Source: Octopus vulgaris (lineage: Eukaryota). Taken from it: a stretch of DNA of 64,000 nucleotides. The DNA lies in contig OX597819.1 of the NCBI GenBank assembly GCA_951406725.2, forward strand, positions 16,988,001-17,052,000. The letters are read 5' to 3'. Shown piece by piece: positions 1,641 to 35,324 of the stretch (the first letter of the stretch is position 1; the number at the start of each line of letters is the position of its first letter). The position numbers and the translations under genes are program-made. The notes under the pieces were generated by a model. That model searched no databases. It saw only the letters and a program-made list of their open reading frames with translations, and was not told the DNA's origin.

Positions 1641-2212
1641 AAAGATATTAATGCGTCTAACCTGGTATCCCCCTCGAAGCAAAGTCACTGTTCAAAATTA
1701 CAGTTCACAAGAAATGAACAAACCATCAGCGCCACAGTAATTTTTGGACGCATTTTCACACACTCTGTATGTTTGCATATCGTGGTCGGTTCGGCTTAGC
1801 AGTAGAGTGTTGTTTCGGAAATGTATAGATTGATGGTGTACTTGAATGGTAACGAAAACAGTATCTTGACTTGTGACCACTGTGAAGAGTTCTTGAGAAT
1901 GTCCTGCATAGTACAAGGCAAAAGAATACAAATAATTAAACGAACAGTAATGATGAGAAAAAAACATTATTTTAATGAATCATTTTGGTAAAAATCACAG
2001 GGAGCAGAACCGCAGAATTACAATAATTAAATAACCAAGAGAGCTATGAGTGAATCTTATCAGTACAGTGGCAGCATTCTTCGATCTTATTAGACCTCGT
2101 CAGTCAAATATATTTTACCCGTCACTTCTAGATCTGAGAATGATAGGAGACAAAATCAGTGTCTTATTAATGAACCCTTAGAGGTGTACTGACGTAAAAG
2201 TTTGGTGTAAGG

Positions 2213-2431
2213 CAGTACTTTTCAAACATTTTGCTGGAGCGGAACCCCAAGAAAACATTTCACTGGCTCGAGGAACCCCTGTGCAATAATTTAATTGTCT
2301 TATGCACACATATCTGCACAGGAGAATTAAAAATTACTGTCGATTTTAGCATTTTTGTAACTTCCTGCGGAACTCCTGGACTGTACTGGCGGATCCCTAA
2401 GGTTCTGCGGAACCCTGGTTGAAAACCACTG
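2213..2431. mobile_element. hAT-superfamily MITE
   Basis: Imperfect TIRs CAGTACTTTTCAA / TTGAAAACCACTG and a perfect 8-bp TSD GTGTAAGG (2205-2212, 2432-2439). Confidence 0.85.
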
Positions 2432-3106
2432 GTGTAAGGTATGCCTCCTACATACACAAATATTCATCCACATAAGCACATACACACACATACATATATA
2501 CGTGTGTGTGTATATATATATGTATATGTGTGTGTTTATATATATGTGTGTGTGTATATATATATATGCACACATACAACACACACATATACATGCATAT
2601 ACATATAAATGTACATATATTTATACACATGTGTGTATAAACACACAGGTATATACATATATATGCGTAAAATTATATAACAGTGTGCATATATTATATA
2701 ATCCAGGTATTATCTATAGGTGAGTGTATATTAAATGTTACTCTGTGGAGTTTGTATTCGTCGATAGTGTGTGTGTGTGTGTCTGTGTTTGTGTATGTGT
2801 GTGTGTGTGCGTGTGTCTGTGTTTGTGTGTGCGTGTGTGTGTATGTGTGTGTGTGTGTGTGTTTGTAGATAGCTATGTAACAGAACATATATCTGACATG
2901 GTAAACATAGAAAAGCTTTCACTGAGGAACTCAGATTAAGTTGTCATATTTACTGGAGAATTGTATCAGTTTCATTTCCGCTTCATATCATCAAAGACTA
3001 TACACACACACACACACATACATACATATATAAACACATACACACATATACGCGAATATACGCTAAAAAAGTATATTTATTAAATATACATATGCTCGCG
3101 CGGGCG

Positions 3107-3232
<126 letters not shown>

Positions 3233-4143
3233 ATTCCCACGAAAGCAAAGCCGGGGTTGCACACACACACATACGCACACACATGCACACACACTCGCTC
3301 ACACGCACACGCATGCACACACGGACACACACACACGCACACGCTCATACACACACGCACACTCACAGAGACTAAATTTTTCGAGACACCCTTGTATATA
3401 TATTTGTATATGTGATAGAATGTATTTGTATATATCTGTGAATGTGTGTATGCACATAAATACAAAGCAGACATATATGTGTGTATATATATATTTATAC
3501 ATACATACTTACACATATACATACATATGCGTGAGTCTCTGTGCATATATATATAAATATATATATATATATACATGTATTTGCTAACATACATATATCT
3601 ATAAATATTCTTAGACATATTATGTATGTATATTATGTATCCACATTTTTGTATACTCATGCATACATCCATAGTTACATACATTTCTGTTTACCTGGAC
3701 ATAAGCATATATAAACGTTTGCATACACACACGCACTCCAGCCCCTCCCACTCTACTCACATAAGCACACACGCACGCGCGCACACATACACTTACACAC
3801 ATACATACATGTGCGCGCGCGCACATTTTCATGCATATACACAAACCTTTGAAAAATATTTTCTTCCTGGTAATGGCTAACCTGAAAGATATGAGGATGC
3901 TTAAGGCATCCACCCGTATCTATCTTAGATTTAAGACGGCGTGCTTTCATCTGATTCCTTGCCGTCTGAGGAAGTAGAGCGTGCTTATTTTGTTTTTTAC
4001 CTTGGATATAATCATTTCAACGTGAATACTAGCTAATTCAAGTGGCTGATACGACTAATAGATAGATATAAAATGGACACAGGAAAAATGGATAAACGTA
4101 TATCGATGTATGCACATACATCGCACGTGTGCACACACACACA

Positions 4144-4224
<81 letters not shown>

Positions 4225-4337
4225 GTGTGTATATATTTATGTATTAATATACAATGCACACTATACATATATTTATATTCATACATATATACATATATAC
4301 ATACATACACGTATATACATATATACATACATACACG

Positions 4338-4799: not shown

Positions 4800-4955
4800 A
4801 TATCATGTGCATGCTGAAGCTTCTTCCGCCAAAAAATACCCGCAGAAATGCCACTTCCAGGACATCAAGGTTTCTATTGAGGTCAGGGATCGAAATATTG
4901 GGAAGCTTAGAATAAAAGAAGCTATCATCAATAGTGAGACCAAACCAAGTATTAT
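4800..4955 (+). mobile_element. Penelope-like element fragment, C-terminal end of the GIY-YIG endonuclease region
   Basis: Translation DIKVSIEVRDRNIGKLRIKEAIINSETKPSI matches the LxIKEAxxIxxxKPxIN terminal motif typical of PLE ORFs. Confidence 0.55.
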
Positions 4956-5338
4956 CAAGATAGCGACGTACGCACACACACACATACACGCGAGAGCGCG
5001 TGCACCCAAACCCACACTGAGAAACACACACACAAACACATACAAACACACATCACACACACGCACACACAAACGCATACAAACACACGTACACAGTTGA
5101 TTAGCTATTATAGCAATGCTATCCTGCAAAGCAACCATCCGTATACACACAGAGCCTAAAGCGAAAACGCTAGCTGCAACTCCAGATCTCAGAAGAGTTC
5201 ATCCCCACCCCCAAATATCGAAACAAGATGAGAGTACGAACCATTGACGAACCATTTCTTATAAATGGCATTGTTTTGGTCTTTGAAAAAGAAAATTAAA
5301 AACGTTATATATATATATGTATATATATATATGTATAT

Positions 5339-5429
<91 letters not shown>

Positions 5430-5532: not shown

Positions 5533-5827
5533 ATATGGGCACAGGACCTAAACAGCGTGAATAACATGAAAAACGAGAACAGGAAAAAAAACATGGAAAA
5601 CGAAAGAAACAAATAGAGAAACGCGACAGGTGACATAAAGAACAATCCCTTCATCAGTTGTCCTCTGTTTTATCTACTCCGCGTTTCGAACGCTTGGGAC
5701 AAGACGCGTCTTCGTTAAAACATTCGTTCCTGCAAAGCAAATTAAATAGAATTTGAGATTTTTTGCAGAGGGTTAAAGTGATAAACAAAAACAAGACAGT
5801 AAGAACAAACCAGTATGTACCAAAACA

Positions 5828-7349: not shown

Positions 7350-7810
7350 TATGGTTACTAGACGTCAAAAAACGTGAACAAAATGAGAAACGAGAACATA
7401 AGAAAAACAAAAGCATGGAAAATGAACTTTTTTTCGAACAACGAAAGAAACAAATAGAGAAATGATACAGACAACATAAAGAACATTCCCTTCATCAGTT
7501 GACCCCTGTTTCATCTACTCCGCGTTTGGAAGGTAGGGACAAGACGCGACTTTGTTGAAACAGTCCTTCCCGCAAAGCAAATTAAATAAAATTTGGGATT
7601 TTTTGCGGAGAGTTAAAGTGGCAACAAGAACAGGACAGTAAGAACAAAACAGTAAAAACTAACGGTGAGGGCTGTTAGGCCATAACGAGGTGAAGTGGTG
7701 AACGCTGGAAAACGAGCTTTGCAAAGAGACAGGCAAAAACACGTCTTGTCTTTAAGAACGAAGTGGAAGAAAGAAAGATAGATGGCCGTTGGTCACGTTT
7801 GAGCAATGAG
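7350..7810 (-). mobile_element. Family A copy 2, with degenerate permuted hammerhead at 7488-7563
   Basis: Clear alignment to 5533-5830 and the 3' end abuts a TA-rich tract. Confidence 0.65.
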
Positions 7811-29106: not shown

Positions 29107-29456
29107 ACACACACACAAATACATACACAAATACACACCTACACACACTCACACATACAGACACGCAAACACGCACACACACACTTGTTCTCTCTTTCTC
29201 TTTCTATCTGTCCTTCTATCTGTCTGCCAATCTATCTGTTTATTATACAAACGTGTGTATACAATTGACATACATACATTCACAATCACATACACAACAG
29301 TAAACAGATACACACACACACAAACACACAATAATCTATATATCTACAACTATAAGTATACATGTTTATAACTTATATACTTCCTGACACATTTTCATCT
29401 TCCCCCGCTCTCGCTCTCTCTTTCTCTCTGTATATATATATGTATATATATGACTA

Positions 29457-29920
29457 TATGGGTATAGGACGTCACCAGCAGTACAAATAACATGAAATAC
29501 GTAAACAAAGGAAGGAAAAACGAGTGGAATACTTGAACAACGAGATAGAAGGGAAAATAGGACAAGTAAACAGAGAGAAAAGCCCCTTCATCAGTTATCG
29601 GTTGTCTGTCTGCTCCCCATTTCGAGCATTCAGCGACAATAGGAGTCTTCAAAGACAGTTGCTCCCATAAATTCTAAAATAAAATTTTGGGTTTATGGAG
29701 GGTCAAAGTTGGGAACAAAAAAAAAAAGTGACAGTGGAGACATACAAGGAAACCGAACGAAAACAAACATAGAGGGTCGTTAGACCGGAACGAGAGGAAA
29801 ATAGTGAACGCTGGGAGAAACAATTTTTTGGAAAGAGAAAAGATAGAAGAGAGAGAAAGAGAGAAAACACGTCCTTTCCTTTAAATGTCCGTGCAGGAAA
29901 AGAAAGAGGGTCACCCAGAC
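29457..29920 (-). mobile_element. Family A divergent copy 3, permuted hammerhead at 29584-29658
   Basis: Same order of motifs as copies 1 and 2, flanked by (TA)n on both sides. Confidence 0.6.
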
Positions 29921-35100: not shown

Positions 35101-35324
35101 TTATTTTAAGCAGCAGAAAATTCAACAAAATCTGTTACTCTGAGTTTTCGTGCCGTTCATCAGACAGTTTTTGCTAGAATCTAGCAAAAACTGTCTGATG
35201 AACGGCAACGAGAAACTCAGAGTAACAGATTTTGTTGAATTTTCTGCTGCTTAAAATAAAGCATATTATACCACTGGTATTTGATACTCTTTTCCACCTT
35301 GTTTCACATTTATGTGTTTACTCC

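Follow-up and report, generated by a model that had tools for sequence, protein, structure and literature searches.

A putative non-circularly permuted hammerhead ribozyme of the type-SGC architecture in an abundant repeat family of the Octopus vulgaris genome

Natural hammerhead ribozymes whose blocks S, G and C follow one another in that order, the type-SGC ribozymes (the HRIMA-1 motif and its variants), were described by Eckert, Friedrich, Weinberg & Weinberg (Nucleic Acids Research (NAR) 2023; PMC10085705). In the portions of that paper and its supplement drawn on here, type-SGC RNAs are found near hairpin ribozymes in metatranscriptomes, cleave in cis in vitro at the expected site and require for cleavage all of their predicted helices, among them a helix between the two flanks of the CUGAUGA strand. 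In the two published alignments every row bears a metagenome or metatranscriptome record name, and the same portions of the supplement gave no match to Octopus, cephalopod, Mollusca or Eukaryota. Among functional RNAs, non-circular permutation has this one published case, in environmental RNA whose hosts are unknown; within the literature searched, the term type-SGC appears in that paper only, and no hammerhead or other self-cleaving ribozyme of this kind is reported from an octopus or cephalopod genome. The hammerheads of Penelope-like elements and of animal non-long-terminal-repeat (non-LTR) retrozymes are of type I only, as far as the relevant portions of three sources describe them (Cervera & de la Pena 2014, PMC4209133; 2020, PMC7229834; Li, Clavereau & Pollet 2026, preprint 10.64898/2026.07.22.740005). 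Here, we describe a repeat in a 64,000-nucleotide (nt) stretch of the Octopus vulgaris genome (GenBank assembly GCA_951406725.2, contig OX597819.1, positions 16,988,001 to 17,052,000 of the forward strand; hereafter, the window), one copy of which carries a candidate type-SGC hammerhead on the minus strand at 29658..29584. Judging from the sequences of this copy and its relatives, we put the probability that the founders of the family encoded a true self-cleaving type-SGC hammerhead at about three in four, and rate activity of this particular copy as much less probable.

Read on the minus strand, 29658..29584 gives, from the 5′ end, CUCC, U-A, UUGUCG, a 7-nt linker, CUC, GAAA, UGGG, a 15-nt stretch, CGAUAA, CUGAUGA, A and GGG, letter for letter as in the first-pass annotation of this DNA, which had proposed a permuted hammerhead here. 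The core strands stand in the order site, GAAA, CUGAUGA, and a direct reading finds the same order in all seven subfamilies of the repeat (A, B, D, E, F, G and H). This order is unreachable by rotating a type I, II or III hammerhead, and all three stems cross in the linear map. The parts of the focal copy are as follows.

29431..29914, minus strand: non-coding repeat copy of subfamily F, 5′-truncated relative to longer family members, with the putative ribozyme in the sense orientation of the element
29653..29658, minus strand: outer helix (extension of stem III), 5′ strand CUGUCU, whose partner in the family register is AGACAG
29646..29652, minus strand: purine-rich internal loop, 5′ side (UU GAAGA), opposite GAGUAGA(U); GAAG is kept in six of seven subfamilies
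29642..29645, minus strand: stem III, site-side strand CUCC (subfamily majority CUCA), in which an A-to-C change makes a C.U mismatch adjoining the core
29640..29641, minus strand: U16.1 and A17 of the cleavage site (U-A at 29641-29640), with the predicted cut between 29640 and 29639
29634..29639, minus strand: stem I, 5′ strand UUGUCG, pairing with 29600-29595 with one G.U pair
29627..29633, minus strand: linker from the stem I 5′ strand to the stem II 3′ strand, the join that defines the non-circular permutation
29624..29626, minus strand: stem II, 3′ strand CUC, pairing with GGG at 29586-29584
29620..29623, minus strand: GAAA box, at least 90% conserved in each column and invariant in one, among 114 copies
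29616..29619, minus strand: stem III, GAAA-side strand UGGG (majority UGAG), forming one C.U mismatch and one G.U pair with CUCC
29608..29615, minus strand: internal loop, 3′ side, GAGCAGAC in the focal copy and GAGUAGAU in the majority
29602..29607, minus strand: outer helix, 3′ strand AGACAA (majority AGACAG), followed by the single base 29601 and then stem I
29595..29600, minus strand: stem I, 3′ strand CGAUAA (majority CGACAA)
29588..29594, minus strand: CUGAUGA box, every column at least 90% conserved among 114 copies of seven subfamilies
29584..29587, minus strand: extra A (29587), at least 90% conserved, then the stem II 5′ strand GGG

The focal copy differs from the F majority by nine changes in 82 nt, four of which fall in helices: two in stem III (A to C, A to G), one in stem I (C to U) and one in the outer helix (G to A). 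Its stem III mismatch had raised the question of whether a subfamily consensus would restore the helix, and the majority of 30 F copies does so with a perfect CUCA/UGAG, alongside an equally perfect stem I (UUGUCG/CGACAA). Because of these nine changes, and because the consensus repairs stem III, we regard the focal copy as a decayed member of the family, and the C.U mismatch adjoining the core together with three weakened pairs indicates a ribozyme that is probably impaired, and either slow or inactive.

Subfamily majorities were taken from 30 copies each, except for D (five copies); beyond the subfamilies represented in the window, further lineages were recognised among the first 100 matches to a sequence pattern, after which 30 copies each of E, G and H and the five of D were fetched. 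Stem III takes six complementary majority forms: CUCA/UGAG in F, CGCG/CGCG in A and B, CGCA/UGCG in D, CACA/UGUG in E, CGUA/UACG in G and GCAA/UUGC in H, which bears out the proposal that this helix had been rewritten between subfamilies. Stem I takes four (UUGUCG/CGACAA, to which F belongs, UUGUCC/GGACAA, UUGUCA/UGACAA and UUAUCG/CGAUAA), the first two of which reproduce at the level of majorities the covariation first seen among copies in the window. The outer helix, which joins a segment upstream of stem III to a segment just 5′ of the 3′ strand of stem I, reads CUGUCU/AGACAG in F, CUGUUUUA/UAAAACAG in A and B, CUGUUU/AAACAG in E and CUGUUUU/AAAACAG in G, and is wholly rewritten to CCAGAG/CUCUGG in H. 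The site letters are U-A in F and H and U-C in A, B, D, E and G, which satisfies the N-U-H rule; the site U is at least 90% conserved across 114 copies of the seven subfamilies, and in 109 of 112 distinct rows its pairing partner is the final A of GAAA. The linker from stem I to stem II measures 5-7 nt across subfamilies. Subfamily H, the most distant, is unalignable to F or B by blastn outside the motifs, yet it keeps CUGAUGA, GAAA and the site U. The first-pass annotation had called GAAGA and GAAA invariant; the columns of GAAA and CUGAUGA are at least 90% conserved in 114 copies, whereas GAAGA is replaced in subfamily H, where GGAA stands directly before stem III.

Pairing was quantified in an alignment of 114 rows (A1), made up of the focal copy, the five D copies and, for each of six subfamilies, those 18 of 30 copies that lie closest to the majority. 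Predicted partners are complementary in 93.4% of 2,238 cells, a figure raised by leaving out the 12 most diverged copies per subfamily, as against 79.4% in shuffled alignments (0 of 500 as high) and 40-51% when the partners are slid by one to three columns; the covariation score is 0.422, as against 0.182 shuffled and at most 0.121 slid. The fold thus survives the comparison with shuffled alignments that had been named as its test. Changes on both sides of a pair are seen in five of six outer-helix pairs, four of five stem III pairs, two of six stem I pairs and essentially none of the three stem II pairs; stem III shows up to four Watson-Crick types per pair, and stems I and III are both about 93-96% paired. 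Since the rows are related, these counts tally copies rather than independent events, and the number of distinct helix forms is the better measure of events. At one stem II position the commonest pair is U.G (89 of 112 rows), a pair that works only on this strand and thus points to RNA of this strand. Sequence is conserved in the internal loop as well, where GAAG faces GAGUAGA (29646-29650 against 29609-29615 in the window, and the corresponding columns of A, B, D and E). We take AGUA opposite GAA in such a loop to be the signature of a bend of the loop-E or sarcin-ricin type, and speculate that the loop might supply the bend that brings the outer helix next to stem I.

The family is abundant. 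In the 2.8-Gb assembly (227 contigs), the pattern GAAG, U-H, GAAA, CUGAUGA at the observed spacings has 2,219 matches, as against 63 for the reversed pattern, which puts the family at 2,219 or more motif-bearing copies; a first look gave 2,525 candidates with a 131-nt query around the focal copy and 2,467 and 3,330 with the two other copies in the window. The same architecture had been proposed for those two copies, at about 5722-5647 and 7563-7488 on the minus strand, and is present in both.

5647..5722, minus strand: second window copy, subfamily A, predicted cut 5703/5702, the sole window copy that meets the strict type-SGC pairing descriptor
7488..7563, minus strand: third window copy, subfamily B, in which CAAA replaces GAAA, predicted cut 7543/7542

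This descriptor demands at least five pairs in stem I, four in stem III and three in stem II, with G.U allowed; it found nothing in the reversed window or in 20 window shuffles, and it accepts, per 30 copies fetched, 15 of F, 7 of A, 1 of B, 12 of E, 9 of G and 1 of H. All subfamilies have a CpG at the start of GAAA, made up of its G and the preceding C (e.g., window 5680-5679), and many decayed copies have UG or CA at these letters. Decay of the CpG at this junction of stem II and GAAA alone destroys the core, and GAAA...CUGANGA is kept in only 13 of 30 B copies.

Evidence bearing on cleavage in vivo comes from the ends of the copies. Among the 29 F copies other than the focal one, 5′ limits range from 29914 to 29695 and 16 share a 3′ limit at 29431; with variable 5′ limits and a common 3′ limit, the repeat behaves like a 5′-truncated retro-copy with the ribozyme on its sense strand. 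If transcripts were cleaved, reverse transcriptase should often be given templates whose first base is the one that follows the site. We therefore mapped 5′ limits by chained blastn in copies fetched with queries lying wholly downstream of the ribozyme, so that 5′ extent did not sway selection (29 copies of F, 29 of A/B and 29 of E). Junctions near the site were inspected by eye, two apparent ends that proved to be internal deletions were excluded, and 14 E alignments that stopped at the limit of the reference itself (-24 to -27) were treated as censored. For A/B, 11 of 29 ends lie between +3 and +24 of the predicted cut and none of 29 in the 53 nt upstream; for F, seven lie between +2 and +15 and one at -17; for E, seven lie between +1 and +25 and two upstream, at -3 and -16. 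Pooled, 25 ends fall in +1..+26 and 3 in -26..-1 (binomial p = 1.4e-5), with 6 in +27..+52, and the step remains when four inverted-copy junctions are removed (21 versus 3, p = 1.4e-4). The density of 5′ ends thus steps up at the cut predicted from the hammerhead in three subfamilies, an excess that we read as an indirect sign of cleavage in vivo. A downstream query for H retrieved a related repeat, H2, instead and yielded no 5′-end distribution for H.

Together with the selection and relatedness of the aligned rows, the points gathered in this and the next two paragraphs weigh against a cleaving hammerhead. The 5′ ends are spread over +1..+33 without stacking at +1, and such ragged ends could be mimicked by fall-off of reverse transcriptase in a structured region or by an internal start site. 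Contigs from eight public sequencing runs (six coded organism labels) carry the family, their majority letters equal to those of F at seven positions, and bridge the predicted cut; being contigs, they are uninformative on RNA ends or strand. Stem II, proposed as GGG/CUC and present as such in the focal copy, is the only helix without covariation: it has only 3 bp (base pairs), GGG with CUC or UUC, so that only a C/U varies against an invariant G. It is paired in 85.4% over all rows and unformed at those columns in H and in the young relative H2; no register tried in H gives more than two pairs, and the H copies passing the descriptor rise from 1 to 12 of 30 when stem II is waived. Folding energies are no better than those of shuffled sequence (z -0.2 to -2.0), and competing hairpins that bury the CUGAUGA strand are predicted. 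A rival reading sees a conserved structured RNA without catalysis, whose hairpin of outer helix and stem III would act, for example, as a structure for recognition or priming by reverse transcriptase, and whose likeness to the hammerhead boxes would be coincidental or a relic. In its favour, the outer helix and stem III, the best supported of the helices, are nested, and in four of seven copies folded (the A, E, G and H representatives) they make up the minimum-energy fold; stem II is weak, the folding energies are not significant, and H2 has spread despite a damaged site strand. Such an RNA would leave unexplained why 7 + 4 unpaired core letters and the U-H remain fixed while loops and linkers are rewritten, why two pairs of a pseudoknotted stem I have changed in compensation and why the density of 5′ ends steps exactly at the cut that the hammerhead predicts. 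We consider it unlikely, if far from negligible.

The topology raises a second difficulty. No helix clasps the CUGAUGA strand by pairing the 5′ flank of the stem I 3′ strand with the 3′ flank of stem II, where only non-aligned complements of 4-5 bp occur downstream; the 5′ flank is taken up by the outer helix with the upstream CUGUCU-type strand. Between the distal ends of the extended stem III and of stem I there is then a single linking base, which requires a sharp bend in stem III. Because this one-base link strains the fold in cis, and because the CUGAUGA strand is, in topology, an arm of its own bound to the stem III hairpin loop, this strand of one copy or transcript might instead join the site/GAAA hairpin loop of a second, in the manner of split laboratory hammerheads and of Penelope dimers. 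Small Penelope-associated hammerheads reportedly act as dimers, and octopus copies are often clustered, tandem or inverted, with more than one core in 29 of 231 retrieved sequences. Stems I and II would offer only nine pairs to hold two molecules, however, the strands occur together in the same order and spacing at all 2,219 places, and the published type-SGC RNAs cleave in cis in the portions of that work drawn on here (PMC10085705). Action in trans or as a dimer is, in our judgment, improbable.

Third, none of the hammerhead models of Rfam 15 matches the focal copy or the intact copy at 5.7 kb of the window at E values up to 10, and none reaches its gathering score in the window. This miss is expected, since the order site, GAAA, CUGAUGA is one that covariance models built for types I-III are unable to represent. 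The same results bear on whether the motif belongs to an ordinary hammerhead, of type I or III, that has its missing strand in another part of the element, a reading for which it may be said that animal retroelement hammerheads have so far been of type I (in the part of preprint 10.64898/2026.07.22.740005 covered here). Besides the lack of an Rfam hammerhead match in the window, the focal copy and the intact copy, the one GAAA positioned for pairing with the strands on either side precedes CUGAUGA and would fall within loop 1, and the 34-46 bases downstream of CUGAUGA are U-rich in each subfamily majority and hold no suitably flanked GAAA. An ordinary hammerhead is therefore very improbable indeed. 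The type-SGC hammerhead remains our preferred reading for the founders of the family: the permuted core and its covarying stems, as first proposed from the window, recur in seven subfamilies and exceed both the shuffled and the slid controls.

A second pairing of the stem I 3′ strand was also seen. In A1, columns 66-72 can pair with columns 83-90, which joins the stem I 3′ strand to sequence just downstream of stem II and places CUGAUGA in a hairpin loop; examples are GGACAA/UUGUUC in A (window 5662-5657 with 5644-5639), CGAC/GUCG in E and G and CCGAU/AUUGG in H. On the modelled pairing, this may be an "off" conformer whose partners change together with stem I.

Compared with the published type-SGC ribozymes, insofar as the portions of PMC10085705 drawn on here describe them, the octopus motif shares the order site/GAAA/CUGAUGA, a short linker from the stem I 5′ strand to the stem II 3′ strand, a stem III that is open at its 5′ end and the crossing of all stems. 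The single extra base between CUGAUGA and stem II is often U in the published RNAs and A in the octopus motif; stem II has about 5 bp in the former and 3 bp in the latter, and the linker is typically 3 nt as against 5-7 nt. The octopus motif lacks the clasping helix, and its stem III runs through the purine-rich internal loop into a covarying outer helix of 6-8 bp that abuts stem I. The octopus motif is encoded in DNA, in thousands of copies of a mobile repeat, whereas the published RNAs come from environmental records, and the likeness drawn here is one of architecture. The three strands would fold into the usual three-helix hammerhead core, even though every pair of helices crosses in the linear map. 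An intact version would likely cut its own transcript 3′ of the U-A or U-C site, and the cut would be expected to leave a 2′,3′-cyclic phosphate and a 5′-OH, as in other hammerheads.

The arrangement of copies suggests what such a cut might be for. Same-strand neighbouring cores show eight spacings of 670-810 nt and two of 984 and 1,019 nt, and upstream of six long copies the sequence carries on as the 3′ portion of the preceding unit; the majority of copies stand alone and are 5′-truncated. Inverted neighbours are common. Multi-unit transcripts would be cut to unit-length RNA of about 0.7-0.8 kb, possibly circularised, and the unit RNA would be copied back into DNA by a reverse transcriptase acting in trans, most plausibly that of a Penelope-like element. 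The 90 loci of subfamilies F, A and B that were searched for an open reading frame (ORF) showed no coding extension. A tRNA-derived short interspersed element was considered and set aside, as no tRNA was found in the window or in nine long loci. Close inverted pairs occur in the assembly (G000), for example at C7:59070906-59071261, C4:75549277-75549782, C2:185212709-185213246 and C10:28305284-28305583, and one locus (L131) holds three head-to-tail units from different subfamilies; such pairs and the mixed tandem suggest repeated insertion into the TA-rich tails of earlier copies. TA-rich sequence abuts 7 of 11 truncated A/B copies and the examined flanks of all three window copies, and a crude survey counted TA-rich upstream flanks at 15 of 176 copies as against 11 of 352 controls, with blast-defined borders that are unreliable and shifted by low-complexity masking.

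Penelope-like elements and retrozymes, in the parts of the literature cited above, share several features with this repeat: a hammerhead on the sense strand, a non-coding and partly tandem element, 5′-truncated and inverted copies and, at many junctions, TA-rich sequence. The presumed role of retrozyme-type hammerheads is likewise the cutting of multimeric transcripts to unit length, which we presume for the octopus repeat as well. The hammerheads themselves differ, those of retrozymes and Penelope-like elements being described there as type I (in the order CUGAUGA, GAAA, site), with a tiny stem III and often dimeric, whereas the octopus motif is type-SGC with a long stem III. Hepatitis delta virus (HDV)-like ribozymes at the 5′ ends of non-LTR retrotransposons set the RNA 5′ end that is copied into DNA, so that the 5′ ends of copies pile up at the cut. 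They belong to another class and cut at the 5′ edge of the ribozyme, whereas the octopus cut would lie inside the motif and many copies extend upstream of it.

A more specific link is offered by the table of Craig et al. 2021 (PMC8557442), which lists for Octopus vulgaris (sinensis) the element Naiad_Ovul, with an insertion preference for (TA)n and an "HHR_half_core". In the portion of that paper drawn on here, the half-core stands for CUGANGA in the 3′ untranslated region accompanied by GAAA at a distance of 35-50 nt, before or after it, and matched none of the descriptors then in use. A type-SGC motif would look alike, although the likeness is by description only, and by this analogy the half-core of Naiad_Ovul could be the octopus type-SGC motif. 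A search of the accessible part of the supplement for the CUGAUGA-strand motif found nothing, and no nucleotide consensus turned up in it. Tentatively, and with slightly less than even prospects, we propose in addition that the octopus motif is the first non-circularly permuted ribozyme from an animal genome, that it is active in vivo with its cut fossilised in the 5′ ends of hundreds of retro-copies, and that it represents the long-missing ribozyme of those (TA)n-targeting Penelope-like lineages that carry half-core motifs. If all of this is true, the rearranged hammerhead would be a mainstream tool of eukaryotic retroelements, and no mere oddity confined to environmental circular RNAs. A family encoded in a genome, with dated copies in the thousands and several covarying lineages, would give the type-SGC fold a host and a role, in the processing of retroelement RNA, and would provide natural variation for studying the folding of a triply crossing hammerhead with a short stem II and an extended, probably bent stem III. 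It would also justify searching animal genomes afresh, together with those Penelope-like elements that are said to "lack hammerheads", with descriptors admitting all six block orders.

With regard to a Penelope-like partner, a family with a 765-amino-acid ORF and its own pseudo-LTR was considered and rejected: it shares only microsatellite with the repeat and has no Rfam hammerhead and no match to the type-SGC descriptor. One apparently intact Penelope-like element (L261, on G000 C16; related loci L262-L266) has ORFs at 645-1685 and 1993-4290 and a pseudo-LTR at 130-585 that is repeated at 4868-5372, and a 781-codon open frame is kept in many genome copies of the element; it, too, has no Rfam hammerhead. 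In its 3′ region (L261:4440-4890), some five units of roughly 100 nt stand in tandem, and every unit carries a motif of the UGAUGACGUC type that resembles a degenerate CUGAUGA box; no canonical box is present. The H2 repeat is a young non-coding repeat of about 4.2 kb (L328-L356; L387:16-4193), with copies 92-98% alike on many contigs, and it carries the GAAA and CUGAUGA strands of an H-type motif. Upstream of the cut, the reverse complement of its own 3′ region is apparently joined on, and the stem III site strand and the outer helix are lost, so H2 has spread without an intact ribozyme. Finally, window 35157-35201 holds, on both strands, a near-perfect inverted repeat with arms of about 26 nt that end in CUGAUGAACG-like sequence, a short spacer and CTGATGA on both strands; it has the look of a hairpin or of terminal repeats and seems to have no connection with the ribozyme repeat.

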